A DNA stretch of 49,274 bases from a bacterium (GTDB lineage: Bacteria; Patescibacteriota; Minisyncoccia; Ryanbacterales; GWA2-47-10b): NCBI GenBank assembly GCA_027624915.1, contig JAQBTR010000004.1, positions 1-49,274 on the forward strand. Reading direction: 5' to 3'. Below are positions 5,496 through 47,803 of the stretch, in pieces. Below the pieces are notes generated by a model that saw only the letters and a list, made by a program, of their open reading frames with translations, had not been told where the DNA came from and did no database searches. Positions within the stretch are counted from its first letter, which is position 1, and the number at the start of each line of letters is the position of its first letter. A program made the position numbers and the translations under genes.

Positions 5496-5501
5496 TCAGA
5501 A

Positions 5502-20008: not shown

Positions 20009-20080
20009 GCTCGACAGAACTTCCGTAAGACCTCGCCAAATTGGCAGGCTGGAACAAGAACATATAGAGGAGATGACTTA

Positions 20081-20848: not shown

Positions 20849-20886
20849 CCCAAAAAGGATATCGGAGAATCCTCAACTTCTCTCCG

Positions 20887-20950
20887 AGAGCCAGGCAATG
20901 TCCTGGCTCTTTTTTTATACAAAACAAAAATCGCCCTAGGGCGATTTTTG
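20887..20950. terminator. Two adjacent intrinsic terminators between convergent genes
   Basis: AGAGCCAGG..CCTGGCTCT plus T run (20887-20916); CAAAAATCGCCC-TA-GGGCGATTTTTG (20925-20950). Confidence 0.75.
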
Positions 20951-20967
20951 TATAGTCTAGTTTTGGA

Positions 20968-25258: not shown

Positions 25259-25311
25259 AATTCTATGATTCTTTAATTAAAAAAGGGCGCAGGGCGCTCT
25301 TAATGTTCCCC

Positions 25312-25474
25312 GGGATTGCTTTCAAACTTGCTTTCGTTATTAAAATTCCCAAATTTTGAGCGGAGCGAAGATAAAAATTTTGAACTTAATGCCGTAGGTA
25401 TTGGTAAAAAATTTTTATCAAGCTAGAGCCAAAATTTAGGGATTTTGGTAGAAATGGAGTTTGAAAGTGATCCC
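25312..25474 (+). repeat. Family C long hairpin, copy 1
   Basis: GGGATTGCTTTCAAACT/AGTTTGAAAGTGATCCC outer stem; core TGAACTTAATGCCGTAGGTATTGGT (25381-25405). Confidence 0.75.
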
Positions 25475-25494
25475 AATATACCACAAATTCCCTG

Positions 25495-26769
25495 TTAATT
25501 CAATCCCCCAAGGCCCTCGGCAACGCTAGAACCCGCAACGTATCCAGATGACCAACAAAGCTGGAGTGAGAATCCACCCGATGGTCTACTAATATGTAGG
25601 AGGTCTCCTGTTATATATAGGTTAGAAACTTTCTTTGAGCGCATTGTTTTTGTGTCTATTTCATCAAGTGGTACGCCACCGTCAGCAACGACTGCTCTAT
25701 CAAAACCCATGAGTCCATTGATAGTAAGTGGCAATGCCTTGAGAGAGTGCGTCAAAAATTTTCGCTCCTCACGACTTACTGAATGAACGGGCTTACTCGT
25801 ATCAACGTGTCCTGCCAAAAGTATCAAAATACCTTTTGCCATACCTTCAGGTACGACTTCTTTCAAAACTGTTTTTAAATTCTTGTTTTTGTTCTTATCA
25901 AAGACTGCCGTAATTCTACGATCAAGCACTCCTAAGTCTGTGTCGGGATATGCATCAATCTTGGCGGTTACCGCGCCACTGTGTAGTAGGTCTGCTACCT
26001 TGTGTGCGAGATTCAAAATAAGTGGGCCGGACAAACCAAAGTGTGTAAACAGAATCTTTCCTTTTTCAGAAAATGCTTTCTTGCTATCAACAAAAAATGT
26101 GATTCGCATGAACGAAAGTGAGACTCCAGCCAGTTTTTTGGACCACACGTCTTCCACAGCAAGCGGAACAATGGTTGGGCTCGGTTTTCTTATTGTATGA
26201 CCGAGTTTTTTGAGCCATAAAAATCCGTCCCCTGTCGAACCCGTTTCTGGATGAGAGAGACCACCAGTTGAGACAAGATAGTTAGTGGCATAATATTTGT
26301 TTTTGCCACACGACACGCTCCTTATATCATTTTTAATCGTATCGATACCCGTCACGGGAGAATTAATCTTAACCTCAACATTACCTTTTTTCACATACTT
26401 TTCGAGAGTCTTTAATACATCAAAAGCTTTTTCAGTTTTTGGAAATGCTCGCTTGCGTGCTTGCACAACAAGTGGAAGTCCGCGCGAATCAAAAAATTCA
26501 AAGGTATCTTTTATACCAAACTTTGCAAACAAAGAGTACAAAAACTTGTTTGATTTGCTATACGCACTAAGTAGCACGTGCTCGTCTTCTTCGGCGTTTG
26601 TTATGTTACAACGTCCACCTCCTGATATCTTAAGCTTTTCTCCTAACTTTCTATTCTTCTCAAGAAGTAACACGCGTGCACCAAGTTCGGCAGCTCTGCC
26701 TGCAGCCATAAGACCAGATGCCCCACCACCTATAACTATGAGATCATATTTTGTTTCGTTGGAGTTCAA
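25495..26769 (-). CDS. HI0933/YhiN-family FAD-dependent oxidoreductase
   Basis: IGGGASGLMAA, KISGGGRCNITN, TGGLSHPETGSTGDG, LFTHFGLSGP and GGFSLQ. Confidence 0.92.
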   Translation of the reverse strand: MNSNETKYDLIVIGGGASGLMAAGRAAELGARVLLLEKNRKLGEKLKISGGGRCNITNAEEDEHVLLSAYSKSNKFLYSLFAKFGIKDTFEFFDSRGLPLVVQARKRAFPKTEKAFDVLKTLEKYVKKGNVEVKINSPVTGIDTIKNDIRSVSCGKNKYYATNYLVSTGGLSHPETGSTGDGFLWLKKLGHTIRKPSPTIVPLAVEDVWSKKLAGVSLSFMRITFFVDSKKAFSEKGKILFTHFGLSGPLILNLAHKVADLLHSGAVTAKIDAYPDTDLGVLDRRITAVFDKNKNKNLKTVLKEVVPEGMAKGILILLAGHVDTSKPVHSVSREERKFLTHSLKALPLTINGLMGFDRAVVADGGVPLDEIDTKTMRSKKVSNLYITGDLLHISRPSGGFSLQLCWSSGYVAGSSVAEGLGGLN

Positions 26770-26775
26770 TTATTT

Positions 26776-27399
26776 TTAGTTTATTAGGCCTACGAGGACC
26801 GGGTAGATTCTATCGGCGATTATCTCATACCCTTTGTCGTTTGGGTGAATACTATCATACATCAAATCAGGTGTTCCTATAAGACCATCGAGTACGTTTG
26901 GAATATAGGCCGTATCGTACTCTTTTGCGAGCTCCTTGTAGTCATCTTTGTAATTATCTTTAAGAAGTCCTCCACGAACACCCAGGAGAATCACAATGGA
27001 TCCCTTTTGTTGAGTAGACTCTATCATCATCCTTAGATTAGAAAATGTTTGTTCTTTAGAAACCTTCCGAAGATAGTCGTTCCCACCCAAAAGAATGAGT
27101 ACTAGTTTTGGATCGCTATCCAACGCCTTATCGAACCTCAAAAGACCAGAAGCTGTAGTATCCCCCGCCACTCCTAAGTTTAGGATTGGCATATCAAGCT
27201 TGCGTGATAAGACGGAAACAAAATCGTTGCCAGGGGTTGATCCGACACCCTCAACCAAGCTATCTCCAAAGGCAATTATGTCTATTCCGGAGGACGGATA
27301 GTTTTTTACATTTTTGTTGGAATTAAGGTCGTCCCCAAACAAAAAGAACGCACCAACAATAGCGAGTAACACCGCAATCAAAATTAGAAGCCGTTTCAT
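26776..27399 (-). CDS. SGNH/GDSL arylesterase (TesA-like)
   Basis: FGDSL, GVAGDTT, LGGND and DSIHPN blocks. Confidence 0.92.
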   Translation of the reverse strand: MKRLLILIAVLLAIVGAFFLFGDDLNSNKNVKNYPSSGIDIIAFGDSLVEGVGSTPGNDFVSVLSRKLDMPILNLGVAGDTTASGLLRFDKALDSDPKLVLILLGGNDYLRKVSKEQTFSNLRMMIESTQQKGSIVILLGVRGGLLKDNYKDDYKELAKEYDTAYIPNVLDGLIGTPDLMYDSIHPNDKGYEIIADRIYPVLVGLIN

Positions 27400-27496
27400 T
27401 GCTTTATTCTACCGCTTCTGAGACCCGCTTTCTATTGGCGTGTTAATCTAATCCCGCTAGGGTTAGATTAATTAATTTAAACGCGCGAGCGGTGGC

Positions 27497-27560
27497 TCGT
27501 GACTTTGTTTTCCTGCGAAGCATTGCGAGCAGATAAAACAAGAAATACTCTTGTGGTGCT
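27497..27560 (+). repeat. Family B hairpin repeat, copy 2
   Basis: 64 bp, same length as 28884-28947 with matching ends. Confidence 0.8.
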
Positions 27561-27608
27561 CAACTACCAACAAAAAAGCCCTGGTGTCGTCCCGAAGGGC
27601 GACCTTTT

Positions 27609-27668
27609 TTATTTCTTGTCTTTCTTGGGCTTCTTTTTTTCTTTTCTTCTGTCTTGTGATTTTGCCAT
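27609..27668 (-). CDS. 19-aa lysine-rich peptide MAKSQDRRKEKKKPKKDKK
   Basis: ATG at 27668, TAA at 27609, followed by a hairpin and T run. Below the ORF track's length cutoff. Confidence 0.5.
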   Translation of the reverse strand: MAKSQDRRKEKKKPKKDKK

Positions 27669-27697
27669 AAAGCTATTTTGGCTTTGTAATGATTCTA

Positions 27698-28270
27698 TTA
27701 TACCTCCTTATGCCTAAAACATGCTACTTCATGATCGTTTACCATTCCTATTGTTTGCAAGATTGCATAGATAATTGTCGAACCAACGAAGCTCATTCCT
27801 CTCTTTTTAAGGTCTCGGCTTATAGCATCTGATAGTTCGGTTGAGGCAGGAACCTGAGATATATACTTCCACTTGTTTTGTACTGTCTTACCTCCAGAAA
27901 AACCCCAAATGTATGTATCGAAAGAACCAAACTCTTTTTGTATATCTATAAACACCTTTGCGTTTTTTACTGCCGAGGCAATCTTAAGTCTATTTCGTAC
28001 AATGCCCTCGTTCTTTAATAAAGTCTCTGCTTTTTTTGCGTTATACTTTGAAACCTTCTTAACATCAAAATTATCGAAGGCTTTTCGATAATTTTCACGT
28101 TTATTCAAAATCGTTCTCCATGAAAGACCTGCCTGAGCGCCATCTAACGTAAGAACCTCAAATAAACGTCTGTCATCGTGTAACGGCACACCCCACTCCT
28201 TATCGTGATACTGTGCCATAAGTGTATCGCTATCATTCAATGGCCAACATCGCTTTTTTCCTTTTTTCAT
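27698..28270 (-). CDS. tag: DNA-3-methyladenine glycosylase I
   Basis: RCW, YHDKEWGVP, AQAGLSWRTIL, IVRNRLKI and GMVNDHEVAC. Confidence 0.95.
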   Translation of the reverse strand: MKKGKKRCWPLNDSDTLMAQYHDKEWGVPLHDDRRLFEVLTLDGAQAGLSWRTILNKRENYRKAFDNFDVKKVSKYNAKKAETLLKNEGIVRNRLKIASAVKNAKVFIDIQKEFGSFDTYIWGFSGGKTVQNKWKYISQVPASTELSDAISRDLKKRGMSFVGSTIIYAILQTIGMVNDHEVACFRHKEV

Positions 28271-28290
28271 AATCTTATCTGACGAACAAT

Positions 28291-28494
28291 CTACAAAAGA
28301 CCATCAAGCGAGCCTGCATAGGTACTAAGAAATGCAGGTATTGCGAATACCAAACCAATTGCTGGTAATACAACAAGAGCAATAGTAACCCATGTAACAA
28401 TGAGAAAGTACTTGCGTGTCTTCTCTACCGACACATATATTGCACTCAGCTTCTCGTCCTGTTCCTCAAACTTTTTTAATACTACTTCATCCAT
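28291..28494 (-). CDS. Small membrane protein
   Basis: Coiled-coil N-terminus, then SVEKTRKYF and a TM helix; TATGAT 6 nt upstream. Confidence 0.65.
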   Translation of the reverse strand: MDEVVLKKFEEQDEKLSAIYVSVEKTRKYFLIVTWVTIALVVLPAIGLVFAIPAFLSTYAGSLDGLL

Positions 28495-28513
28495 ACATAA
28501 ATCATATCACGAT

Positions 28514-28861
28514 TTATTTCAAAAATTCTAATACGTTTTCTGGTGGGCGGCCGATGACTGCCTTTTGGCCGAACACAACAATGGGACGCTCAATGAGTAT
28601 CGGGTTTTCTACCATCATTTCTATAAGCTCCTTCTCTGTCATCTCTTTGTCAGAATACAACTCCTTGTATACCGACTCGCCCTTACGAACGAGATCGATC
28701 GCCTCCATTTCTAACTTACCGAGTAGTTCTCTCAACTGGACTTCGGTTGGAGGATTTTGTAGATACTCTATAACCTCCACATCAACATTATGTTCGCGCA
28801 ACAAATCAAAAGTAGCTCTACTCTTACTACATCTTGGATTGTGATATATTGTTGCCTTCAT
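28514..28861 (-). CDS. arsC: Arsenate reductase (ArsC/Spx family)
   Basis: IYHNPRCSKSR, IEYL and NPILIERPIV. Confidence 0.92.
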   Translation of the reverse strand: MKATIYHNPRCSKSRATFDLLREHNVDVEVIEYLQNPPTEVQLRELLGKLEMEAIDLVRKGESVYKELYSDKEMTEKELIEMMVENPILIERPIVVFGQKAVIGRPPENVLEFLK

Positions 28862-29136
28862 GTTGCCGGACTAGGATTCCGCTTCGTGACATTGTTTCCC
28901 TACGAACACGGTGAGTAATTGGAAACAAGAAATGCTCTTGTGGTGCTAGAACCCGTCGTCGTAAACTCCTCCTTGAGAACCCACGGTTCTCAAACGCTTC
29001 GCTATTTCCTCCACGGGGAAACAAATGTTTCCCCGACCCCCTTCTTAGGTTCGAATCCCCTATATATTAGCAAACAAAAATAAAATAACCCACCCCCTTG
29101 GCGAGTTATTTTATTTATGTTGCCGGACTAGGATTC
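28860..29136 (-). mobile_element. tRNA-Gln-linked mini-element bounded by 20-bp direct repeats of the tRNA 3' end
   Basis: ATGTTGCCGGACTAGGATTC at 28860-28879 and 29117-29136; inverted T-arm copy at 29046-29058; contains family B copy 3. Confidence 0.6.
28884..28947 (+). repeat. Family B hairpin repeat, copy 3
   Basis: TCGTGAC.TTGTTT...AAACAAGAAAT.CTCTTGTGGTGCT. Confidence 0.8.
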
Positions 29137-29190
29137 GAACCTAGATAGGCGGCACCAAAAGCCGCAGTCCTACCATTAGACGATCCGGCA
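29120..29190 (-). tRNA. tRNA-Gln (anticodon UUG), CCA not encoded
   Basis: TGCCGGA/TCCGGCA acceptor stem, GCGGC-TTTTGGT-GCCGC anticodon arm, CTAGG-TTCGAAT-CCTAG T arm. Confidence 0.95.
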
Positions 29191-29196
29191 ATATCT

Positions 29197-29874
29197 CTAA
29201 CTTAAGTACTCTATCACACCTTCTACCCACCCATCAATTCTACGATTTAGGTCCGTACTGCGTTGAATAACCACCTTCATAGCTCCATGATATTCTTCCT
29301 GGTTATTACTTCTCGATGTTTTTGGGTTATGTGTTTTTAATGTTAACTTGAGATCTTCTTTTTTTATCTTTAGTAAACGACACCAATATGTTTGAGACTT
29401 TAATATATTTGCTCGTTCGTGAATGTGCATCCGGTAAACAAAACGAGGTGAATCAAAATATTTTTGAGACCATTCGATAAAAAGCAATATAGTCCTTGAA
29501 TCCATATTTATAAACTCAACACCCTGGCTTGGTAACCAATCTTTTTGTTTAGAACCTTCTGCCCAGTACAGCATGACTCCAGACAACCAGAGTGGATCCT
29601 TTATAAATCGAGAGACCTCTTTTCGTGCGCTCAATTTAACATCTTGCGTTCGTTGAAGTCGTATTTCCTTTTTCTTCTTTGCCCCACGCAAAGCGGCATC
29701 AATTCTTTTCTGAGTTATTCGTTGTTTTTGTAGTTTTGACAAGCCAACATCACGCAACCATAAAGATAGGGTGGATTTCGCAACTGGAACTTCTTTCAAT
29801 ATTTCTCTATAGGAAAGACCATGTTCACGCAAACGTATAGCTTTTTGTTTTTCTCTAGACTTGGATAAAACCAT
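29197..29874 (-). CDS. HTH plus LAGLIDADG-like domain protein, directly upstream of tRNA-Gln
   Basis: LREHGLSYREI....VAKSTLSLW (HTH); LSGVMLYWAEGSK and EFINMD resemble a LAGLIDADG helix. Confidence 0.6.
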   Translation of the reverse strand: MVLSKSREKQKAIRLREHGLSYREILKEVPVAKSTLSLWLRDVGLSKLQKQRITQKRIDAALRGAKKKKEIRLQRTQDVKLSARKEVSRFIKDPLWLSGVMLYWAEGSKQKDWLPSQGVEFINMDSRTILLFIEWSQKYFDSPRFVYRMHIHERANILKSQTYWCRLLKIKKEDLKLTLKTHNPKTSRSNNQEEYHGAMKVVIQRSTDLNRRIDGWVEGVIEYLS

Positions 29875-29924
29875 GAATATATGTTATACCCATATATTAC
29901 CATGGTTTTTATGATTATCAAGCA

Positions 29925-31028
29925 CTAGTCACGGACTGATACGTCGAGTAGTGCCAATTCAACTGGGAGTTCTTGGAATGCTCCACGGAAGCCTTTATTA
30001 TGTGATTCGAGGAGTTTTACGAGGAGCAACTCGGCATCCTTACGTGGTGTATCTTTATGATCTTCGAAGAACTTGGCATGATCCTCTGAAATGTCTTTCT
30101 TGAGATCATCAAACACCTTGGGACTAAGAAGTGTCAAAAATAGAGTTCGTGATTCGTGTACCAAAAGTCGCGACAACATCTTGGGATCTAATCCCCGCTC
30201 AAGTATGCTTGCAAGTAACTCAACGATGGTCTTTGGGTCTTTGGCGAGGGCCGCGTGTAAGAGTTCGTGGACTGAGGAGAGTTTTGGTAAGCCAAACAAG
30301 TTCTCAAGAGCATCCTTGTCAGCGCCTTCTGGGTATGCATCCATGAGCTGACCGAGCATACTTTCGGCATCTCGCATCGAGCCATCTGCCAAAAATGTTA
30401 CGAGTGACGTACCGTCTTCGTCGAGTTTGTACTTTTCTTTTTTGAGAATTTCGCGAATACGCTCTCGAATCTTGTCTTGTGCTATACGACGAAACTCAAA
30501 TGATTGTGTGCGAGAAAGTATAGTGTCTGGTACACGCTCAAGCTCAGTTGTCGCCAAGATAAACATAGCGTGCGCCGGTGGTTCCTCTAATGTTTTCAAA
30601 AGTGCGTTAAATGCTTCTTTTGTAAGCATATGCACCTCATCTATGATATACACCTTACGCTTGGCATGCATTGGACTAAACCGCACAGACTCACGTAGGT
30701 CACGAATGTCATCAATACCACGATTACTGGCCGCATCAATTTCAATCAAGTCGAGAGCTTTACCGCTTGCGAAATTGATACACGAATCACATTTGTTGTC
30801 TGGCTCACCGTCTTTGCTAAGGTTCTCACAGTTGTATGCCTTGGCGAGCAAACGCGCGAGCGTTGTCTTGCCGGTACCACGCGTTCCCGAAAATACATAT
30901 GCGTGTGCAACACGATCAAGTTTGAGTGCATTACGAAGAACAGTTACCACATGGTCCTGACCAATAACCTCACCAAACGTGGTGGGTCGATACTTACGAT
31001 ACAAAACGACGTGGCCCTCCTTTTCCAT
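29925..31028 (-). CDS. dnaX: DNA polymerase III subunit gamma/tau (short form)
   Basis: LYRKYRP, GTRGTGKTT, EIDAASNRG, IIDEVHML and SRTQ. Confidence 0.97.
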   Translation of the reverse strand: MEKEGHVVLYRKYRPTTFGEVIGQDHVVTVLRNALKLDRVAHAYVFSGTRGTGKTTLARLLAKAYNCENLSKDGEPDNKCDSCINFASGKALDLIEIDAASNRGIDDIRDLRESVRFSPMHAKRKVYIIDEVHMLTKEAFNALLKTLEEPPAHAMFILATTELERVPDTILSRTQSFEFRRIAQDKIRERIREILKKEKYKLDEDGTSLVTFLADGSMRDAESMLGQLMDAYPEGADKDALENLFGLPKLSSVHELLHAALAKDPKTIVELLASILERGLDPKMLSRLLVHESRTLFLTLLSPKVFDDLKKDISEDHAKFFEDHKDTPRKDAELLLVKLLESHNKGFRGAFQELPVELALLDVSVRD

Positions 31029-31185
31029 AGAGGTACTCTAGCAAGTTTCTCCTGCTACCTCAAACCAAAAAACTAAACACACGTCTGAACGGTTTTTGAA
31101 GCTATAAGCTTCAACCTCACAACCGTCCTAAAGACGGTGAGAATGAGTGAAGAGGTAATATTAAGTTTTTTGTTGTACGTGCGTT

Positions 31186-31346
31186 CACCCCACAGACGAA
31201 TATTTAGTCGTAACGAAAGGCACAAATTTCTTGCGAAAAAAGTGAAGGATGAGGAGGTAATATCCAGCGGATATTTTGACGAGGAGTGAGCTTTTTGTAG
31301 CTAAAATTTGAGACTTGCAGTAGACTAGGGATTTGTCTGTGGGGTG
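31186..31346 (+). ncRNA. Family E 161-bp structured element, copy 1 (candidate ncRNA or mini-element)
   Basis: Co-linear with 47643-47803; the 24-bp outer stem overlaps the GtrA stop codon. Confidence 0.6.
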
Positions 31347-31951
31347 TTATCCTTAAAAACTATGAGTTTGTATCCAAAAAAGTTCCAGAAGAGAGACACT
31401 AGAGTTGCCGCTACCTTAGCTACAACCACGAATTGTTGCTGGTTAAAACTATCACGTGGAGCATATTCAATCATCAAAAACAAGATAGCCGTGTTTATTA
31501 CAATACCCATTATGGTGACGGCAACAAAAATCAAAAATTCTTTTCGCGAAGGAGCATCAGTTTCTTTGAATGTCCAACCGCGCTGCCAAAAATAACTATT
31601 TACAATAGCGATTGAAACGGAAATAACATTAAATAACAAAAGCGTTGCGCCATCATACGAAGCATTTGTTGACGTCAAATACGTAAGAATACCTGCATCC
31701 ACCGTAAAGTTCATCAACCCAACGATTGCAAAGCGTCCCATTTGTTTTAACGCAATAATATGTGAGAAGAGACGAGAGGCAATGACATATGCAACATACT
31801 CACCAATTGGTAATACAACAAACAAAGACCAAAGAGGTATAACAAAGCCCCCAAACTCACGAGATATATCGCCATATGTCACCAACAAAGACGCAAAAAA
31901 TGCGGTTACCAAACCGATTATTGCAGCATAGATATAATCTTTTTTAACCAT
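31325..31951 (-). CDS. GtrA-family membrane protein
   Basis: RFAIVGLMNFTVD, NSYFWQRGWTF and WNFFGYKLIVF. Confidence 0.9.
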   Translation of the reverse strand: MVKKDYIYAAIIGLVTAFFASLLVTYGDISREFGGFVIPLWSLFVVLPIGEYVAYVIASRLFSHIIALKQMGRFAIVGLMNFTVDAGILTYLTSTNASYDGATLLLFNVISVSIAIVNSYFWQRGWTFKETDAPSRKEFLIFVAVTIMGIVINTAILFLMIEYAPRDSFNQQQFVVVAKVAATLVSLFWNFFGYKLIVFKDNTPQTNP

Positions 31952-34364: not shown

Positions 34365-34737
34365 TTGACTCTACCTCTAACACACCACGATTCTTCATGT
34401 CGTCGAGAAATTTATCGACAAGTGCATCATGAAATGCATCAATCAAATACGGATTGTGTGTATTTCTAACCTGTTTTGTAGCCTCTACAATTCCATGTGC
34501 AAATGCAGTCTGTACTAAAACAGCAACATCTTTGTCGATTTCGTCATCATCTGGTTTCGTTGGAGGTACTTGTGGTGGTGGTACACTTGACTTGATATTT
34601 TCTGTGTGTTCTTTTATTGATTCGGACACAACTTCTTTTGAACTTTGCCCTGCAACCTCTTTTCTCTTCTCGAGAATTTTCTGTTCGAGGTAATTGATCT
34701 CCTCTTCTGGAGAATTAAAATTTGGTATTTCCGTCAT
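34357..34737 (-). CDS. Hypothetical protein coupled to the ATPase gene
   Basis: NPYLIDAFHDALVD motif; 8-bp overlap with the ATPase gene. Confidence 0.75.
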   Translation of the reverse strand: MTEIPNFNSPEEEINYLEQKILEKRKEVAGQSSKEVVSESIKEHTENIKSSVPPPQVPPTKPDDDEIDKDVAVLVQTAFAHGIVEATKQVRNTHNPYLIDAFHDALVDKFLDDMKNRGVLEVESNG

Positions 34738-34792
34738 ACACAGCCATTATAACAGAATGTTCTCTAATATAGTATAATAACTGGGTATCGTT

Positions 34793-36421
34793 ATGTCGGA
34801 AAAACCACAATATATTCTTCTTGTCATTATCCTGGTTGTTGCAGGATTTTTGCGTCTCTGGCAACTTGGCTATAGTCCAGAAAACCTAGCCCAAAGCCCA
34901 CCTACTCCAGCCTCAATCCCACCCGGACTCTTTTCTGATGAAGCAATGAATGGAAATAATGCATCCGAAGCCCTTGATACGGGTAACTATAAGGTGTTTT
35001 ATCGTGAAAATAATGGCCGTGAGGGGCTCTATATTAATCTCCAGGCCCTTTCACTAAGATTCTTTGGTCATACTGCATTTGCGCTCCGTCTTGTCAGCGC
35101 ACTCTTTGGAATACTATCCATATGGGCCTTGTGGTGGTTTGCTCGCGAATATACAAAAAATGAATGGATAGCACTTGCCTCATCATTCTTTATGGCAACG
35201 AGCTTTTGGCATATTCTTTTTTCGCGTGTTGGTTTTCGTGCAATTATGGCGCCGTTCTTCCTATCGGCGGGTCTTGCCGCTCTTTATTACGGATGGAATA
35301 GAGCTAGCGATGAAACAAAACACTCAAAGATTATTATCATAAGCGCTCTTGGTGGTGTTTTGTTTGGTCTTGGTTTTCATTCCTATATCGCTTACCGAAT
35401 CGCGCCACTCTTGTTAATTCCTATTATTTGGTCATTTATCAAACTAGCCAAAAAATCAAAACACTGTGTACTGTGTATCCCTGCCATTTTTCTTTTATTT
35501 ACATTTATTGCAGGACTCCCACTCGCCTACTACTTCTTACAAAATCCCGGGGACTTTCTTGGACGTACATCACAAATTTCTATAATGAACAGCGATAATC
35601 CGATTGGTGCGTTCTTAATAAATTCTGGTAAAACAATTCAATCATTATATTTTGTTGGAGACTTTAACTGGAGACATAACTATGCAGGATTTCCAGCTCT
35701 TTGGTGGCCGGTAGCCGTATTCTTTACAATTGGTGTTATTGAAGCTGTAAGAAGAAAATACTGGATGTTATTTATTTGGTTTTTTGTGATGCTTTTGCCG
35801 GTAGCCTTTTCATCCGAGGGTGTTCCTCATTCGCTACGCGCAATTATTATGCTACCTCCTATCATGATTATTGCGGGTGTTGGGCTCCAACATGCTTGGA
35901 AACTATTTGCCGATTGGCTCAAACGAATGAAAACAGCTCACACGGAAGCTTCTTCCATCATTTTGCGCATTCAAAAAGCATTGCCTATTCTTGGTCTTGC
36001 TATTTTATTTGCTATATTCCTTTGGAATTTCGACCTCTACTTCCAAAGATGGTCTATCAGACCAGAAGTAAAACTAGCGTTCAACCGTGAAGAGCATCGT
36101 ATCGCTCTATTTCTAAATGAACTCCCAGAAGAGCTCCCAAAGTATGTGCTACTTGATCTTGACGATACCGTAGACCGCACTGGACGCCCAATGAGCATAC
36201 AGCCAATACTATTTGTCACAGATACGTATCTACCACATGCTGAAGGTCATAAGAACATACACTATATAACTCCTTTGGATGTACCAAATATTGATTGCCA
36301 AGAAGATTGTATAGTCATCCCACCAAAAAACACGATACAATCAATGAATCATCTTAAGGAATTCTTTCCTTCTATGAATCTCCAAAAAACAGAAGGTATA
36401 CTTGTCGCAAGGCCTAGGTAA
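34793..36421 (+). CDS. GT-C fold glycosyltransferase (GT39/ArnT-like)
   Basis: PPGLFSDEA acidic dyad in the first loop, WHILFSR and many TM helices. Confidence 0.88.
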   Translation: MSEKPQYILLVIILVVAGFLRLWQLGYSPENLAQSPPTPASIPPGLFSDEAMNGNNASEALDTGNYKVFYRENNGREGLYINLQALSLRFFGHTAFALRLVSALFGILSIWALWWFAREYTKNEWIALASSFFMATSFWHILFSRVGFRAIMAPFFLSAGLAALYYGWNRASDETKHSKIIIISALGGVLFGLGFHSYIAYRIAPLLLIPIIWSFIKLAKKSKHCVLCIPAIFLLFTFIAGLPLAYYFLQNPGDFLGRTSQISIMNSDNPIGAFLINSGKTIQSLYFVGDFNWRHNYAGFPALWWPVAVFFTIGVIEAVRRKYWMLFIWFFVMLLPVAFSSEGVPHSLRAIIMLPPIMIIAGVGLQHAWKLFADWLKRMKTAHTEASSIILRIQKALPILGLAILFAIFLWNFDLYFQRWSIRPEVKLAFNREEHRIALFLNELPEELPKYVLLDLDDTVDRTGRPMSIQPILFVTDTYLPHAEGHKNIHYITPLDVPNIDCQEDCIVIPPKNTIQSMNHLKEFFPSMNLQKTEGILVARPR

Positions 36422-36425
36422 ACAC

Positions 36426-38240
36426 ATGAAAAAAATAACAACAATATTAGCGGGATTCCTCTTCTTCGTTATGTTTGTTCTCGCGTTTTTCTCGTCCTAC
36501 GATGATTCGGTTATATTTGATGAAACCGCACATATCGGCGCTGGATATTCGTATATTACAGAATTTGATATGCGACTCAATCCAGAACATCCACCACTCT
36601 TCAAAGATTTAGCGGCTCTACCATTACTTACACAAAATCTTAACTTCCGAACGGATACCGACGCATGGCAAAACAAAGTAAATGGCCAATGGGATGCTGG
36701 GGGTGGATTAATTTTTGAATACGGTAACGATCCACAGAAAATAATACGTCTCTCTCGTCTACCCATTATGCTCATGAGTGTTTTAGTAGGATTTCTCTTT
36801 TTCTTCTGGGCACGAAGGCACTTTGGTAAACGTGTTGCATTACTTGGTGCGTTCTTCTATGCATTCTCTCCTACCGTTATTGCACACTCCCGTTTTGTCA
36901 CAACTGATATTGCGGCAGCCCTTGGATTTTTGATTGGTATATCAACATTTGTTGATTTTCTTGAAACGCGCTCAAAAAAACATTTAATTGTAGCTGGGCT
37001 CGCATTTGGTATAGCGCAAAGCCTTAAGTTTTCACTTTTCTTATTGGGCCCTATTTCTATCGTGCTTGCAATCCTTTGGGCCTATTCAAACCGAATGGAT
37101 ATAAAGAATTTTGGGAAGCTTGCAGGACAGGTTCTCTTGATCTTTATTATTGGAGCCTTACTTGTATGGCTTATCTATATCCCACATGTCTGGAACTACC
37201 CTCAAGAAAAACAACTCAGTGACGCGAAAACTCTCATCAGTACCTTTAAGGTAAAACCATTTGTTGATCTTGATTTGTGGCTCATCAAAAATGATTTCAC
37301 CCGCCCACTTGGTCATTACTTAATGGGCGTCATGATGGTCACACAGCGAACAGCTGGTGGTAACAGTGCATACTTCTGGGGCGAGGTTTCTGCCGATGGA
37401 TGGCCGCACTACTTCCCAATAGTATACCTACTCAAAGAAACCCTTGGATTTCATATCCTGACGCTCATGGCTCTTGTGCTCGCTTTCTTGCGCATCAAAC
37501 GCAAGAAAGAGCGTGGTAACGCTAGAGATTGGATTCGTAATAACTTTGCGCTCACGGCGACTTTATTCTTTGTTGGATTTTACTGGATTTTGACCATCTT
37601 TAACCCCCTCAACATAGGAATACGACATCTTTTGCCGATTTTTCCTTTTGTCTATATTCTCGTCGCGCGCGAAATTATTATATGGATTTCTGGAGGTGAA
37701 GCCTCTTATGGAAACCTGATGCAAACAATAAAATCTCTGTATAAAAACTTTGTAGCACCTGCTCCAAAAATTATGATTCTTGCGCTCATCATGCTTTGGA
37801 TATCTGGTAGTGTTCTTCTCGCCTTTCCGTTTTATCTTTCATACTATAACGAACTTGCTGGTGGAACGCTCAATGGGTACAAAATTGCGACTGATTCTAA
37901 CTATGATTGGGGTCAAGACCTAAAAAGACTTGCAAATAAACTAGAAATGGACTACCCAGAAGAAGACACTGTATACCTTCACTACTTCGGTGGTAGTTCA
38001 CAAAATAGTGGTGCACAACAATATTACCTAGGCGACAAGTTTAAGGCACACTATTCGAGCTTTGGACCACCACCATCCGGCTCACTCTTTGCTATATCTG
38101 TAAACGAACTCATGGGTCTCTGGGCAACACCAGTCGCCGGCTTCCCAGAACAAGAACCACAAAATAGCTACGAATGGCTCAAACCCTTAGAACCAATCGA
38201 CCGAGGCGGAACTTCAATCTTCATATACCGCATACCATAG
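36426..38240 (+). CDS. GT-C fold glycosyltransferase (GT39/ArnT-like), second paralog; start probably 36426
   Basis: IFDETAHIGAG, NPEHPPL, GIRHLLP and DSNYDWGQDL. Confidence 0.88.
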   Translation: MKKITTILAGFLFFVMFVLAFFSSYDDSVIFDETAHIGAGYSYITEFDMRLNPEHPPLFKDLAALPLLTQNLNFRTDTDAWQNKVNGQWDAGGGLIFEYGNDPQKIIRLSRLPIMLMSVLVGFLFFFWARRHFGKRVALLGAFFYAFSPTVIAHSRFVTTDIAAALGFLIGISTFVDFLETRSKKHLIVAGLAFGIAQSLKFSLFLLGPISIVLAILWAYSNRMDIKNFGKLAGQVLLIFIIGALLVWLIYIPHVWNYPQEKQLSDAKTLISTFKVKPFVDLDLWLIKNDFTRPLGHYLMGVMMVTQRTAGGNSAYFWGEVSADGWPHYFPIVYLLKETLGFHILTLMALVLAFLRIKRKKERGNARDWIRNNFALTATLFFVGFYWILTIFNPLNIGIRHLLPIFPFVYILVAREIIIWISGGEASYGNLMQTIKSLYKNFVAPAPKIMILALIMLWISGSVLLAFPFYLSYYNELAGGTLNGYKIATDSNYDWGQDLKRLANKLEMDYPEEDTVYLHYFGGSSQNSGAQQYYLGDKFKAHYSSFGPPPSGSLFAISVNELMGLWATPVAGFPEQEPQNSYEWLKPLEPIDRGGTSIFIYRIP

Positions 38241-38253
38241 GAGAGACTGACAC

Positions 38254-38395
38254 ATAAAAAGCATGTCAAAGGTTTTATATCATTCTCGCCCAGCCAGCGC
38301 TGGGCTCCGAGGCTTCAGCTCTTTTGCTTTGACTTACATCAAAGACCGTGCCAAAAGAGCCTCAGAACCCATAAAACAATTGACATGCTTTTTAT
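38254..38395. repeat. 142-bp MITE-like branched hairpin with 16-bp perfect terminal inverted repeats
   Basis: ATAAAAAGCATGTCAA (38254-38269) / TTGACATGCTTTTTAT (38380-38395). Confidence 0.7.
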
Positions 38396-38495
38396 TCTTG
38401 ACTGTCATGCTCTCCACACCCACAAAAAAATAGAAAGTAACTTTTGCACTTCTCGCTTGAGCTCCCAGCATCCTACAATCCGCGGTTGTGGTCAC

Positions 38496-38640
38496 TTTTG
38501 ATTGAGCGCTCCAGGTAACCACCACGGCTCCCCATCCCAACAAAAAATCACCCAGAACTATTTTATACTTCCGATTGAGCGGTTTATTTAACCACCTTCA
38601 CGGCAAAGATCGTATAAAAATGGTTCTGGGCGTTTTTTGT
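38496..38640 (+). repeat. Family A structured repeats: degenerate copy 5 and intact copy 4 in tandem
   Basis: TTTTGATTGAGCG (38496) with CGGC (38525); TTCCGATTGAGCG (38569), CGGC (38601) and GATC (38608) inside the 38540-38640 stem. Confidence 0.75.
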
Positions 38641-39453
38641 CTACCTATCGTATTCTATGAACCGATAAAAAATACGGTTACCGAAGCGAAGGTCGATGTA
38701 GTCTAGCTCATCGGCTTTTTCTTTTATTTCGTTGTCGAGGGTGAGTTGCATATTTTTATATGCCTCTTCTGGATCTGTATCCTCTAAGAGTCGAATTTCC
38801 CAACCAGCACGTGTCTCAGCGTGAAGTGTTGCATCCCTAGCATCAATCGCAAACTGCAAACTCTGTAGGTAATCATTCTCTTGCGCTCGTTCGTTAAAGA
38901 ATGTAATAAGTCTCATCATGCGTTGAGACATTTGTTTTTCACCCAGAGTAATCTCACGATCCCGCTCGTCAGTAATTTTAGGAACGATGGTGCCCGCAAA
39001 ATCTGGAGCCGATTGAAAGGCAACACCAGCCCTATCAATCCAATAACAATCCTCTGGTAGTCCCTGACACAAAACTCCCCATCCAGAATATTCTACAACC
39101 TCTACCGCAAGCTCGTGCGGCCAACTTCGTGTAATATGGACATCTTTTATTACAGGCGAGTGAGACTTGATGATGCTCGCGAGCCCATACTTACTCATCC
39201 ACATGATATCTTGTGGTATAACATATAACGCTTTCTCAGTAAGCGTACGCTCCAAAAATGAGCGCACATCATCTTCTTCTAATCTATCTGTCCCCTCAAT
39301 AGATATGGTCTCAATACGAAAATATGGAGAGTATATTAAAAATCCAAATAAACTACCAACAACCAAAAGAATTGGAAGCATCACGTATAAAGACTTAGCG
39401 ACCCTTCGCTTTTTGTGACGCTTGCTTGATGCTCGAAAACTCTTTTTACGCAT
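38641..39453 (-). CDS. FtsQ/DivIB-like POTRA-domain cell division protein
   Basis: Basic N-terminus, TM helix, FRIETISIEG...ITRSWPHELAVEVVE and LDYIDLRFGNRIFY. Confidence 0.8.
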   Translation of the reverse strand: MRKKSFRASSKRHKKRRVAKSLYVMLPILLVVGSLFGFLIYSPYFRIETISIEGTDRLEEDDVRSFLERTLTEKALYVIPQDIMWMSKYGLASIIKSHSPVIKDVHITRSWPHELAVEVVEYSGWGVLCQGLPEDCYWIDRAGVAFQSAPDFAGTIVPKITDERDREITLGEKQMSQRMMRLITFFNERAQENDYLQSLQFAIDARDATLHAETRAGWEIRLLEDTDPEEAYKNMQLTLDNEIKEKADELDYIDLRFGNRIFYRFIEYDR

Positions 39454-39454
39454 C

Positions 39455-40726
39455 TCAAGAAGTTTTACTTGGTATAGTATTAAATCCAGTATATTTCTGA
39501 AGAACTTCTGGTACTTTTATATAACCATCTTGTGTTTGGTATTGTTCAAGAATGTTAATGAGAATACGTGGGGATGCAATTGCTGTATTGTTGAGAGAAT
39601 GGGCAAATCTCATCTTGCCCTCACTATCTTTATACCTAATACCTAATCGTCTTGTTTGAAAATCATGAAAGTATGATGCTGAGTGCGTCTCTCCATATTT
39701 TTGCTGTGAAGGAACCCAGGTTTCTATATCATATTTTTTAACCTGTCCTTGTCCTAAGTCCCCGCCACAATTTAATACAACTCGGTAGTGAAGACCTAAT
39801 TTTTGTAATAGCTCTTCAGCATTAGCCGTTATTTCTTCATGTAAACGAACTGACTCCACGTGATCAGCCCTACATAAGACTACCTGTTCTACCTTCCAAA
39901 ATTCGTGTACACGATAGAGTCCTTTTGTATCTTTGCCGTGTGTGCCAATCTCACGTCTATAACACGCGGAGAAAGCCGCATATTTTTTTGGAAACTCTTC
40001 TTCTTTTAGTATCTCATCACGAAGCATACCCATAGTGGATACCTCTGAAGTACCAACAAGGCTCAAATCATCCTGAGTATGAAAAACGTCTTCTTTACCT
40101 TGTGGAAAATATCCCGTTCCTAAAAAGTTTGCATCTGTTGCAAGTGACGGCGTCGTTAATGCTGTAAATCCTTTTGCCCGAAGCTCTGACATTGCAAACT
40201 GCCACAGAGCCATAGAAAGAATCACTGCCTCATTTTTTAAAAAGTATCCTCTAAATCCAGCTACCTTTGTCCCTCTTTCAAAATCTGCCAAATCCAAGTC
40301 CTTGAGCAAAGTTATGTGGTCTTTGGGATTAGTGATAGCTGGTATGTCACCCACTTTTCGCACCTCAACATTATCAGCATCAGTCTTGCCATCAGGAACT
40401 GATGGGTCAGGAATGTTCGGGACCGCATACATAAGTACTTCAAATTCCTCATTCAGTTTTACGAGCTTTTCTTCACGATTCTTGAGGTCTGACTTAAGTG
40501 AACCTACTTCTTCTATAGATTTCTTTTTTGATTCTTCGTCTTCAATTTTAGCGATTTCAGCAGACGTGGCATTAAGCTGAGCGCGCATTGCCTCAACCTC
40601 AGTCATCGCCTCACGTCTTATCTTATCTAGCTCAACAAGCTTGTCTACATCAAAAACAAGATGCTTTTTGCGAGCAGCATCTCGTACAAGGGTCGGATTT
40701 TCACGGATAAATTTTATGTCCAGCAT
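39455..40726 (-). CDS. serS: Serine--tRNA ligase
   Basis: MLDIKFIRENP, LVGTSEV, YRREIG, RVHEFWKVEQ and HSLNNTAIA. Confidence 0.97.
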   Translation of the reverse strand: MLDIKFIRENPTLVRDAARKKHLVFDVDKLVELDKIRREAMTEVEAMRAQLNATSAEIAKIEDEESKKKSIEEVGSLKSDLKNREEKLVKLNEEFEVLMYAVPNIPDPSVPDGKTDADNVEVRKVGDIPAITNPKDHITLLKDLDLADFERGTKVAGFRGYFLKNEAVILSMALWQFAMSELRAKGFTALTTPSLATDANFLGTGYFPQGKEDVFHTQDDLSLVGTSEVSTMGMLRDEILKEEEFPKKYAAFSACYRREIGTHGKDTKGLYRVHEFWKVEQVVLCRADHVESVRLHEEITANAEELLQKLGLHYRVVLNCGGDLGQGQVKKYDIETWVPSQQKYGETHSASYFHDFQTRRLGIRYKDSEGKMRFAHSLNNTAIASPRILINILEQYQTQDGYIKVPEVLQKYTGFNTIPSKTS

Positions 40727-40763
40727 TCCCTCATTATACCGATTTTAGACCTATTTCCAAATA

Positions 40764-40791
40764 AAAATCCCTCGCTTTCGCGAGGGATTTT
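40764..40791. terminator. Intrinsic terminator
   Basis: AAAATCCCTCGC-TTTC-GCGAGGGATTTT. Confidence 0.8.
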
Positions 40792-40808
40792 CTTAACTCA
40801 AAATTTGT

Positions 40809-41270
40809 TTATTCGACGACCAAATTACCAATCATACCCTGAGCACGATGCGCACCAACACTACAGTAATACTCAAACGTACCTGTTTTGTCGGCAACAA
40901 ATTCTATAGATGTTGTGCCATCATCAACAGCAACTTGTTTTGTTGCTACACCAAATTCATCAATACTCCAGTCATGAAATCCAGAAGTACTCGAGAAATT
41001 AATAACAACTGTATCGCCCTTCTTGACCTTGATCTCGCTCATTGAAAAAGCGAAGTTGCGTCCCGTTACGTCAAAAACTTTCTTTTCACCCCCCTCCATC
41101 ATGGCATCGTCATCTTCCATCATGGCACCGTCGTCATTCATTGCATCATCATCCATTATGGCATCATCTTTGTTCTCCATGGCGTCTGGCGCCTCAGGCG
41201 AACTCGTTGTAAGAAAATAGATACCTCCTACAACCACTACTAATATTATTACCCCTATTAATGCTTTCAT
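40809..41270 (-). CDS. Membrane-anchored cupredoxin with a Met/Asp-rich linker (start moved to 41270)
   Basis: GFHDW and YYCSVGAHRAQGM give the H...C-X4-H-X4-M type-1 copper site. Confidence 0.88.
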   Translation of the reverse strand: MKALIGVIILVVVVGGIYFLTTSSPEAPDAMENKDDAIMDDDAMNDDGAMMEDDDAMMEGGEKKVFDVTGRNFAFSMSEIKVKKGDTVVINFSSTSGFHDWSIDEFGVATKQVAVDDGTTSIEFVADKTGTFEYYCSVGAHRAQGMIGNLVVE

Positions 41271-41346
41271 ACGATGTATTATCTTTATATAAGAAGCATT
41301 AGTCAACCAATACGAGTGTACAAAAAAGAGCACCCTTGTGGGGGTG

Positions 41347-41925
41347 CTACGCAACCATATTTTTTGTTTGTCCTAATTCGGTATCTAATGAAACGCCAGC
41401 AATAAACGGATGACGCAGTGTACGTTCTACTGCACGATACTCTGTTGTATACGGAAGCTCATCAATACGATGGAGCTCAACCATTCCTCGTTTTTCTGGG
41501 TTGGTACTAGCTACCGTTACCAGCTGTGACGTTGGATAGTTTTGTGTATCGTATACGATTCCAACATGTCTTGTAGCATTGGGTCCGATTGAACGCGACC
41601 TTACATATATAACAACATCGCCAAATGTGTATGGCATATCAGGATTTTTTTCTACCCATCCGCTCCAATTACAAAGATCTCTCTCAAGGCCATCTACGGT
41701 GAGATGCAGGGTCTGGCATGCTCGGACGTCCTTGCCACGAGGCCTCGGTTCCAAGACAATGGGAATCAAAACACTTGAAACAAAGAGGGCGCATTTGCGC
41801 AAGCCATTACCGGTCTGTTCTCGAACATCTCCCCTCTCGAGTCCGAAGACGTGTGGAGGGGCAATAGCTGATCTCGCATACATGTCAATCCAAGCGCGAA
41901 GGTTCTCATTTGGGAGAAGCTGCAT
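41347..41925 (-). CDS. Hypothetical protein with an NlpC/P60-like Cys-His pair
   Basis: KCALFVSSVL, FGDVVIY and RHVGIVY. Confidence 0.55.
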   Translation of the reverse strand: MQLLPNENLRAWIDMYARSAIAPPHVFGLERGDVREQTGNGLRKCALFVSSVLIPIVLEPRPRGKDVRACQTLHLTVDGLERDLCNWSGWVEKNPDMPYTFGDVVIYVRSRSIGPNATRHVGIVYDTQNYPTSQLVTVASTNPEKRGMVELHRIDELPYTTEYRAVERTLRHPFIAGVSLDTELGQTKNMVA

Positions 41926-41980
41926 AGCTAAAAACCTCCATTATTTTCTAGACGCACTATACACTAAAAATTGGATTGAT

Positions 41981-42802
41981 TCAACCCTCCTCGGTACACT
42001 GAATCAACTCAAGAGCCCCGTAGAGTCCTCCTATGTCACCGAGTTCAGCTAGCTTAAGCTCGGGTGTTTTAGGAAAAATCTTTACTAATTTATTTAGCTT
42101 ATCTTTAACTAAATCCATTGGAACATGTGGTGCCATTCCACCACCCAATACAATACATTCTGGAGACCAGAGAACAACAATGTTATTAAGGGCAGACGCA
42201 AGATGATTACAAATCTCATCCCATAACTTTGGGTCATCAATTTCTGATGCTCTCAATCCATATTTTTCTTTGAGCACCGTTCCTGAAATAAGTGACTCAA
42301 TTGTTCTTGGCTCACCATTTATTAGATCAACAATTTGGTGACCAGCCTCAAAGCCCAGATATGCGTGATCAGGCCTTCCGTCTACAATGCGAGCACCACC
42401 AACTCCAGTACTTATTGTTATATATGCAACTATACGGCAACCTCTACCTGCGCCTCGAACAGCCTCACCAACACCGACAACAACAGCATCATTTTCTAAA
42501 CGTACTGGCGCGTCAAGCTTTTCTGAAATATCATGCTTTAATTGTCTGCCAACCCAGTCAGGAAGATTGGGTGCATTAACTAAGCCATCATGATTTGGAT
42601 CAAGGGGTCCTGGAACTCCACCAGTTATTGTCTCTATCTTTTCACCAATTGCGATCTGTTTTGCAGTTCCTGTAAGGAGTGTCACTCCTTCGTCATAACG
42701 CTCTGGAGTACTCAGAATAATAGGATCCGCCGAAAACGTATGACAGTCTTTACTTCCTGCAACACGCATGTGTGACCCTCCAATATCAAAAAGTATGTGC
42801 AT
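41981..42802 (-). CDS. ROK-family sugar kinase
   Basis: FDIGGS, GVPGP, LENDA, ISTGVGG and EAGHQ. Confidence 0.92.
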   Translation of the reverse strand: MHILFDIGGSHMRVAGSKDCHTFSADPIILSTPERYDEGVTLLTGTAKQIAIGEKIETITGGVPGPLDPNHDGLVNAPNLPDWVGRQLKHDISEKLDAPVRLENDAVVVGVGEAVRGAGRGCRIVAYITISTGVGGARIVDGRPDHAYLGFEAGHQIVDLINGEPRTIESLISGTVLKEKYGLRASEIDDPKLWDEICNHLASALNNIVVLWSPECIVLGGGMAPHVPMDLVKDKLNKLVKIFPKTPELKLAELGDIGGLYGALELIQCTEEG

Positions 42803-42817
42803 TTAAAATAATAAACT

Positions 42818-42981
42818 GGTGTATAAATGAAAATTTGCTTTCGAAGCGACGATTTTATGATTTTTGCGAAGCGGAGTCAAAAAATATGAACTTAATGCCA
42901 GAGGTATTGGTGAGTATTTTTTGACAAACTGCAGCAAAATCATAGAATCTTGAGCTGAAATGATATTTTTAATTATACACC
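42818..42981 (+). repeat. Family C long hairpin, copy 2
   Basis: Core TGAACTTAATGCCAGAGGTATTGGT (42887-42911), 23/25 identical to copy 1; the outer stem includes the CBS gene's GGTGTATAA end. Confidence 0.75.
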
Positions 42982-43446
42982 CAGCAGTCTTATTGGCTTG
43001 AGGACATCAAACCTACTCACAACACCTACAACTTTTTTGTCTTCATCTATAACAGGAATTGGATTTACGCGGTGGTGGTCCCTAAATGCCGAAACCGTCT
43101 CCTCATAACTTGCATTTGGCATGAGTGTGAGTGGGTCGGGGTTCATAACATCGACCGATTTCAAATTAGCGATTTCTTTTACATCTTTCTGAAAATCCTT
43201 CGAGGACCCGTGTGATGTTTTTAACTGTCCCAGGATTTGTTGAAATGTTGGCAGGTGAATTGCCGAACCCTTACCAATCAAATCATATTCGGTAAGAATC
43301 CCAACAAGCGCGCCAGAACTATCCAAAACTGGCATACCATCAATACCATGTTCTGCAAGAAGTATAGCGGCCTCACTGATAGGAGTGTCTTCTTGCACCG
43401 TGATTACTTCCTTTGTCATTATGTCGCTAACTGTAACGTTTTCCAT
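42973..43446 (-). CDS. CBS-pair domain protein
   Basis: VSDIMTKEVIT...GMPVLD...GILTEYDL, then a second CBS motif. Confidence 0.92.
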   Translation of the reverse strand: MENVTVSDIMTKEVITVQEDTPISEAAILLAEHGIDGMPVLDSSGALVGILTEYDLIGKGSAIHLPTFQQILGQLKTSHGSSKDFQKDVKEIANLKSVDVMNPDPLTLMPNASYEETVSAFRDHHRVNPIPVIDEDKKVVGVVSRFDVLKPIRLLGV

Positions 43447-45319: not shown

Positions 45320-45390
45320 GGGCCTGTAGTTTAGTGGTAAAACGACCCCCTTGCACGGGGTAGCTCGGAGTTCGATTCTCCGCAGGTCCA
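45320..45390 (+). tRNA. tRNA-Ala (anticodon UGC), CCA not encoded
   Basis: GGGCCTG/CAGGTCC acceptor with G3:U70, ACCCC-CTTGCAC-GGGGT anticodon arm, TTCGATT T loop. Confidence 0.96.
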
Positions 45391-45589
45391 CAAAAATAAG
45401 AAACCGAAAGCACTGCTTTTGATGATTATATTTTTGTAGGATTTGCGGAGAATCGAAAGGCGGAGGCGGTATACAAGACGAAGCTTTGCTGAGTGTTTGT
45501 CGCCGAGCCAGGGTCGTGAGCGTATCATTGTAAGGAGCGTGGCGACTATACAATGAATGACTCCTGACCGGTTCCCGCAGGTCCACAAA
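45380..45589 (+). mobile_element. tRNA-Ala-linked mini-element bounded by 15-bp direct repeats of the tRNA 3' end
   Basis: CCGCAGGTCCACAAA at 45380-45394 and 45575-45589; inverted copy of the T arm at 45445-45457. Confidence 0.6.
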
Positions 45590-47642: not shown

Positions 47643-47803
47643 AGTCCTGAGAAATAATTTGATTTCGTTGCGAGATGGTTTTATCTTGAGCGAAAACAAT
47701 GAAGCACGAAGAGGTAGTATACGGAGTATACGCCGATGAGTGATGAGTTGTTTGTAGCCAAGATAAATTCATCGCAGTAGGAAACAAATTATTGATCGGG
47801 ACT
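47643..47803 (+). ncRNA. Family E 161-bp structured element, copy 2
   Basis: Co-linear with 31186-31346; the outer stem overlaps the stop codon at 47789. Confidence 0.6.

Follow-up and report, generated by a model that had tools for sequence, protein, structure and literature searches.

Two nested hairpins between minus-strand genes

We have studied a stretch of 49,274 nt from a bacterium of the Patescibacteriota (contig JAQBTR010000004.1 of assembly GCA_027624915.1), which we will call the window. It is part of an 83-kb aquatic-metagenome scaffold, its G+C content is about 42%, and it has two tRNAs and otherwise no Rfam match. The subject of this work is a pair of long hairpins, C1 and C2, which have a common apical core of 25 nt and which an original prediction, made from the letters alone, had placed between co-oriented minus-strand genes. 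This is indeed their position. C1 (25312–25474, plus strand) lies between the genes of an ABC ATPase (23792–25258) and an HI0933-like flavoprotein (25495–26769), C2 (42816–42984, plus strand) between those of a ROK protein (41981–42802) and a CBS protein (42973–43446); all four genes are on the minus strand, and the CBS gene has its final codons and its stop within the 3' arm of C2. The gene content of the window fits the Candidate Phyla Radiation (CPR): it includes type IV pilus genes, PMT-like glycosyltransferases, DUF5671 and DUF8128. The closest homologues of the CBS protein are 60–65% identical, and the named ones belong to Parcubacteria (Giovannonibacteria, Sungbacteria, Ryanbacteria).

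The core, TGAACTTAATGCCNNAGGTATTGGT, has only two matches in the window, at 25381–25405 and 42887–42911, both on the plus strand. A scan with up to three mismatches gives no third site, and no match is found in 100 dinucleotide shuffles. The only difference between the two copies is in two bases of the loop, GT in C1 and AG in C2, as had been predicted. In C1 the core forms the stem AAUGCC/GGUAUU (25388–25393 with 25397–25402) with a 3-nt loop GUA; it also contains ACU/GGU with a bulged U, and the purines UGA...(A/G)A on both sides. The 5' arm of each rod has purine-rich internal loops: GAGCGGAGCGA in C1 (25358–25368), with its partner AGCTAGAGC at 25421–25429, and GCGAAGCGGAG in C2 (42866–42876), with its partner AAACTGCAGC at 42926–42935. 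The GA-rich strings of the prediction are thus present in both rods at the places given for them. GC/GC pairs at the loops of C1 are invariant across the alignment. An identical copy of the C2 sequence is found in an independent Logan contig.

Both plus strands have inverted arms and fold as a single unbranched rod. C1, a complete nested hairpin of about 163 nt, has a minimum free energy (MFE) of −76.9 kcal/mol (z −7.9); C2, of about 168 nt, has −62.8 kcal/mol (z −8.3). In neither case is any of 200 shuffles as good, which bears out the predicted rods of about 165 bp. The arms pair from the first base to the last and no open reading frame (ORF) is confined to a rod, so that C1 and C2 are short, non-coding and bounded by terminal inverted repeats, as are transposable elements of the miniature inverted-repeat type (MITEs). 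The reverse complements are less stable (−60.0 kcal/mol for C1, −42.3 for C2), a difference of about 20 kcal/mol which is due to the G–U pairs of the plus strand: there are eight in each rod, against one in each on the minus strand. Another estimate for the C1 rod is −72 kcal/mol on the plus and −50 on the minus strand. The wobbles had been expected on the plus strand. As also expected, the stems of C1 and C2 are unrelated in sequence and keep their pairing, which is apparent both in the alignment and in the covariation described below. The region is AT-rich and the stems have runs of A and T, so that chance palindromes or low-complexity DNA might be considered; however the z of −8, the shuffles free of the core, the strong covariation and the presence of the core in other species leave practically no room for them.

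Some features of the immediate surroundings should be added. On the minus strand, positions 25283–25303 contain GAGCGCCCTGCGCCC followed by TTTTTT, which resembles a weak terminator hairpin with a single mismatch and was missed by the terminator scan. It sits between C1 and the start of the ABC ATPase, downstream of C1 in the direction of these genes, and it would place C1 in the 3' untranslated region of the HI0933-like gene in minus-strand transcripts. The arms of C2 contain two sets of promoter-like hexamers: TTGACT-17-TAAAAT (42852–42880, minus strand) faces the ROK gene, and TTGACA-16-TAGAAT (42921–42948, plus strand, 11 of 12 matches) faces the opposite way. They are not conserved in the other C copies.

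The window has two more rods, E1 (31186–31346) and E2 (47643–47803), also on the plus strand, and C had been proposed to be a sister subfamily of E. Our results support this relationship. E1 has inverted arms and the same architecture with a different apex. The lower internal loop of E2 is formed by TTCGTTGCGAGA (47664–47675) and CGCAGTAGG (47773–47781). C and E rods align structurally to one architecture, they are alike in size and in their bias for the plus strand, and in both the 5' arm has the invariant loop bases GCG and the 3' arm AGC. In the window R1, a covariance model made from all six rods, finds exactly C1 (157 bits), C2 (159 bits), E1 (134 bits) and E2. A model of C-type rods only (R3), run with filters off at E ≤ 1, has E2 as its sole match outside the training set (48.3 bits, E 7e-8). 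All four rods are antisense to their flanking genes. Three of them extend into the gene on their right and cover its final codons and stop: at 42973–42984 the CBS gene, at 47789–47803 that of a 414-aa protein without known function, and at 31325–31346 that of a GtrA-like protein. It would thus seem that these genes received new C-termini and stops when the rods inserted.

Relatives in Parcubacteria and in other phyla

A search for the core in genomes and relatives had been proposed as a check. Among 185,579 species genomes it is found in two, Parcubacteria CG11_39_22 and Candidatus Paceibacter BE2012. The exact core is also present in two metagenome contigs, both identical to the CG11 sequence, and further contigs of the source metagenome span the core and have the GAGCTT variant known from CG11. 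A relaxed scan for the C apex in the same 185k genomes yielded additional CG11 copies, but only chance matches beyond CG11 and Paceibacter, with no R1 rods there. In CG11_39_22 there are at least four copies that are nearly identical, and they combine the C core with the exact lower-loop motifs UUCGUAGCGAGA/CGCAGUAGGA; its rods adjoin infB/rbfA, pnp and a tRNA-Leu. In one of the copies (L001, 5817–5875) the apical loop of the core is longer by 28 nt, which form a small additional hairpin, so that insertions are tolerated in the apex loop.

In an alignment of 12 CPR rods 91% of the cells are paired, and 42 of the 54 pairs show double changes. None of 500 shuffles is as good, and controls in which the alignment was slid reach 33–51%. 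At the apex 23 of 23 bases are identical across the three species, with stems that differ. Rods are absent from 78 kb on four other Parcubacteria contigs, hence their distribution is patchy. One Parcubacteria contig without rods encodes a 216-aa protein with a weak Pfam match to Y1_Tnp (IS200/RAYT-like; L171, 6322–6972). We also looked for related loci with or without the element. With CBS homologues as synteny anchors the CBS–ROK neighbourhood proved not to be conserved, so that no empty site could be shown; metagenome contigs aligned to the window contain no deletion variant, and a search anchored on DnaX returned unrelated phyla.

The CG11 copies and E2 have in common an exact lower internal loop, TTCGTNGCGAGA ... 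CGCAGTAGG. A scan of the species genomes for this pair of motifs at a distance of 90–120 nt gave 52 loci. About 35 of them are rods of 175–200 nt with the motifs in the same structural position, 22–24 bp above the base; R2, a model built only from six rods of the gammaproteobacterial type, recovers all the rods found outside CPR. The remaining loci (in Enterovibrio, Mesorhizobium and others) lie in coding DNA and were discarded as chance matches. The hosts of the rods belong to at least eight phyla: Gammaproteobacteria, Desulfobacteraceae, Acidobacteriota, Nitrospirae/Nitrospirales, Verrucomicrobia, Victivallales/Lentisphaerales, Bdellovibrionota, Fermentibacteria, Sungiibacteriota and more Parcubacteria. 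There are 3–7 copies in each of several metagenome-assembled genomes and four in the 49 kb of the window, the multi-copy and patchy occurrence which is expected of MITEs. In an Acidobacteriota genome rods abut with a CCTAGG junction in common (L114, about 5500–5760), and one Gammaproteobacteria chromosome has three copies in mixed orientation within 5 kb (L136, 2087–6976).

We define the superfamily as rods of 165–200 nt with purine loops at fixed positions, a lower loop UUCGUMGCGAGA / CGCAGUAGGA and a more stable forward strand, by which we mean the strand that bears the motifs. The usual apex is AGGYA-hairpin-YCGAG, and C rods have the 25-nt core in its place. The four rods of the window belong to the superfamily, although by different routes. 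With filters off R2 detects E2 (45.6 bits, E 1e-7) and E1 (32.8 bits, E 4e-5) in the window, all its matches being on the plus strand. Its score for C1 is marginal (21.8 bits, E 0.0065, plus strand only) and that for C2 (14.7 bits, E 0.16) does not stand apart from those of generic hairpins. What links the C rods to the superfamily is therefore mainly the CG11 copies, with their C apex and canonical loops, and the detection of E2 with R3. The best-supported arrangement is that C would be a narrow Parcubacteria subfamily with its own apex, and E a form nearer to the widespread type.

Rfam 15 gives nothing on the window rods even at E ≤ 5, and nothing on six rod loci outside CPR at E ≤ 1. No rod match was found among plasmids with blastn, the scan of viral contigs gave 0 matches, and literature searches by motif strings and keywords returned no description of such a family. 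Clustering of the proteins that neighbour rods did not reveal a recurrent partner. A sliding-window MFE scan is too unspecific for listing rods.

The strand bias extends to the whole group. In 37 rods there are 259 G–U pairs on the forward strand vs. 107 on its complement. The 1×1 mismatches of the forward strand are mostly A·G and G·G (95), with 29 A·C, as compared with 91 A·C and 114 C·U or C·C on the complement. Several internal loops have the same 5'–3' sequence on both arms, for example GACCGA/GACCGA or GUA/AGUA: such loops break the DNA palindrome, but they give local dyad symmetry in the folded strand. A deamination bias on the G-rich minus strand of the window would be expected to give wobbles on the minus strand, the opposite of what we observe; the simplest reading is therefore that selection acts on the forward strand in single-stranded form. 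With DNA energy parameters the asymmetry remains (mean −9 kcal/mol), so that it does not distinguish RNA from single-stranded DNA (ssDNA).

If the selected strand were RNA, the rods might be genes for trans-acting structured RNAs transcribed from the plus strand, possibly domesticated MITEs, with an apex and loops which bind a protein, perhaps a dimeric one (RNase III or L7Ae-like). The stability of that strand, with 6–12 G–U pairs against 0–2 on the other, would agree with such genes, and so would the apex of 23 nt identical in three species despite differing stems and the antisense position of the four window copies. We have also found in one hydrothermal-vent metatranscriptome contigs which are 88–90% like a Nitrospirales rod, with other flanks; however they are without strand information and DNA carry-over is possible. 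None of the RNA runs contains the rods of the window or of CG11. No promoter or terminator is common to the copies, the rods fill intergenic spacers and even overlap stop codons, they are missing from the 78 kb of other Parcubacteria, and their relatives have target-site duplications (next section). For these reasons we consider RNA genes an unlikely explanation.

The position of the rods within co-directional gene strings could instead suggest a role in cis on the minus-strand operon mRNAs, as sites for processing or stability, or as insulators between genes, in the manner of ERIC and Correia hairpins. C1 would then act from the 3' untranslated region of the HI0933-like gene, the minus strand still folds (−42 to −60 kcal/mol), and one of the promoter-like hexamer sets of C2 faces the ROK gene. 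But the strand under selection, with its G–U and G–A contacts, is the one which is not present in those mRNAs, and over all loci the orientation with respect to neighbouring genes is mixed. This role appears to us even less probable than RNA genes.

Target-site duplications and the nature of the rods

In multi-copy genomes the ends of the elements are sharp and their flanks unique, and 4-bp direct repeats on both sides co-vary. They are TTAG/TTAG in five cases (L136a, L136b, L105, L115 and L129) and CTAG/CTAG in at least six, among them L088, L109, L126, L136c and L095. L122 has GTAG/GTA, and a few other pairs are decayed. The four CG11 copies are flanked by CATA/CATA (two of them), ATTA/ATTA and CTTA/CTTA. 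An extension of the inverted repeat would predict CTAA opposite TTAG; TTAG is found instead, so the flanks are target-site duplications. IS5 characteristically leaves a 4-bp YTAR duplication (PMC5009759), and the IS5-derived element MITEPsy1 duplicates CTAG/YTAA (PMC3189936). From the duplication alone, an IS5-like DDE transposase is suggested as the mobilising enzyme.

We have observed directly the structure of the rods, their covariation and strand asymmetry, their multi-copy dispersal, the duplications of their relatives, their patchiness and the lack of a nearby enzyme. What we infer from them concerns the identity of the enzyme, the RNA or ssDNA nature of the selected strand and effects on neighbouring genes. 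We consider that C1 and C2 are probably two old, immobile copies of a non-autonomous, MITE-like hairpin element, members of a superfamily whose single-stranded form is under selection; we would give this interpretation a probability of about 0.6. The element would be a near-perfect foldback of about 165–200 bp without an ORF, broken at fixed positions by purine-rich, non-palindromic internal loops with G/A on both arms of the same strand. It would insert into intergenic DNA with a 4-bp duplication, YTAG outside CPR and NNTA in one Parcubacteria genome, from which it follows that an enzyme acting in trans makes a staggered cut. After insertion the stems would drift and keep their pairing, and only one strand would retain G–U, G–A and G–G contacts. 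Such a retention points to selection on that strand in single-stranded form, be it as a transcript or as an ssDNA intermediate. In the C family the usual apex would have been replaced by the 25-nt core.

Several observations weigh against this interpretation. C1, C2, E1 and E2 have no recognisable flanking direct repeat, and the termini of C1 and C2 are mutually unrelated; the four copies look old, and the mobility of C1 and C2 is therefore deduced from their relatives. All four have the same orientation, which random insertion gives only about one time in 8. Among about 45 window proteins there is no transposase, Y1/RAYT protein, reverse transcriptase or integrase; nor was a parent insertion sequence (IS) or transposase found beside the rods in about 50 loci or on plasmids. 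In the CPR copies the apex and loops are conserved and the termini are not, the opposite of a classical MITE, which is read through its terminal inverted repeats. This conservation suggests that something else than the binding of a transposase constrains the sequence. The strand-specific non-canonical pairs which persist in unrelated stems are also a misfit with a textbook MITE. Finally, the lower-loop motifs of the rods outside CPR were preset by the search pattern, so that their invariance is partly due to ascertainment.

The conserved apex and loops, together with the strand-specific pairs, keep open the possibility of domesticated RNAs and also that of a mobility directed by the fold. In the latter case the rods would form a mobile class across phyla which is spread or retained through its single-stranded fold and not through terminal sequences: a dimeric protein would read the dyad-symmetric purine loops and the apex, and insertion would still leave a 4-bp duplication. 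We regard this as a tentative idea of low probability. If true, it would correspond neither to DDE transposition directed by terminal inverted repeats, nor to the REPIN/RAYT system, nor to attC, and it would operate even in minimal CPR genomes.

Structure-specific ssDNA recombination sites of a known type, either attC-like or derived from the ends of IS200/IS605 or RAYT–REPIN systems, would also keep their structure with a variable sequence and fold in a strand-specific way, as the rods do with DNA parameters as well, and the tetranucleotide GTAG is present in both lower-loop motifs. On the other hand the rods have no R'/R'' cores, the window has no gene for an integrase, Y1 or RAYT protein, and the flanks are housekeeping genes and not cassettes. 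Duplications of 4 bp are not made by attC, IS200/IS605 or RAYT systems. We consider such sites a very improbable identity.

CPR and Parcubacteria genomes are among the most streamlined, yet about 650 bp in 49 kb of the window are four structured repeats, and one may ask why they are tolerated. Covariation screens are likely to mis-call rods as novel non-coding RNAs, and the repeats could complicate metagenome assembly; both difficulties are avoided once they are recognised as a repeat family. Should the mobilising or host machinery read the strand-specific fold, the family would lend itself as a tractable model of structure-directed mobility or of the RNA domestication of transposons.

Other structures of the window and comparison with known elements

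Apart from the rods, the window has several other structured sequences. A second hairpin family, of about 95 nt, is found at 19786–19878 and 38543–38638, with the inner motif TTCCGATTGA(C/G)CG ... GGC(G/A)AAGATC; its outer stems are unrelated yet paired, and the minus strand is slightly more stable. At 38254–38395 there is a rod of about 140 nt with 25-nt outer arms, 92% complementary, around G+C-rich inner hairpins; its minus strand is the more stable (−65 vs. −56 kcal/mol), and it does not match the rod models. Inverted partial copies of tRNA 3' halves, with the T-arm sequence GGTTCGAATCC, are found at 45371–45457 and 29037–29152, adjoining tRNA-Ala (45320–45391) and tRNA-Gln (29119–29190) respectively; past integration at tRNA genes could have left them behind. 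The region 20000–21000 has a G+C content of up to 0.49, ORFs which overlap on both strands, several palindromes (20182–20264) and, for either strand, folding energies that are unusually low; its ORF 20081–20848 has no Pfam match.

Several known structures were tried as identities for the rods and rejected. 6S RNA and SRP RNA were dropped, and HEARO and other Rfam 15 families likewise gave no match. A retron msr/msd was discarded because there is no reverse transcriptase. Hairpin and hammerhead ribozyme cores have other loops than the rods, a K-turn is at odds with the GA register, and Acido-Lenti-1 has no Rfam match on the Acidobacteriota or Victivallales loci.

IS5-derived MITEs, such as MITEPsy1 of Pseudomonas syringae, resemble the rods: they are small and non-coding, occur between genes in multiple copies, and have inverted ends and a 4-bp CTAG/YTAR duplication. 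The rods differ from them as full-length foldbacks of 165–200 nt with conserved non-palindromic loops, and their ends are unlike those of IS5 and MITEPsy1 (GGAAGGT...). Furthermore, no parent IS has been found for the rods, and the CPR copies conserve the apex and not the ends.

ERIC, YPAL and Correia (NEMIS) elements are hairpin MITEs of Enterobacteria, Yersinia and Neisseria: intergenic imperfect palindromes of 100–170 bp, which become long RNA hairpins if they are co-transcribed and may carry promoters or RNase sites. To our knowledge each of them is limited to a genus or family, duplicates TA and shows overall sequence identity among its copies. The rods, in contrast, span phyla, keep their structure as the sequence diverges and are strongly strand-asymmetric.

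The attC sites of integrons have in common with the rods a strand-specific folding, conserved unpaired bases and a recognition based on the fold. However the rods lack the R''/R' cores (RYYYAAC...GTTRRRY), an integrase and cassette arrays; they are solitary and have target-site duplications.

The original prediction had also considered a REPIN-like element. This holds loosely: like REPINs, the rods are dispersed, hairpin-forming and non-coding, they contain GTAG and they are long-persisting. It fails in the details, since REPINs are doublets of short repetitive extragenic palindromic (REP) sequences, need a RAYT and leave no target-site duplication. The rods are single and long, without a REP doublet, their relatives have 4-bp duplications, and the window proteins include no Y1_Tnp match. 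A MITE-like description fits better than a REPIN-like one, for a family that reaches far beyond its source genome and phylum. A structured MITE is a known kind of element; this family is absent from Rfam, and its phylogenetic reach is unexpectedly wide.

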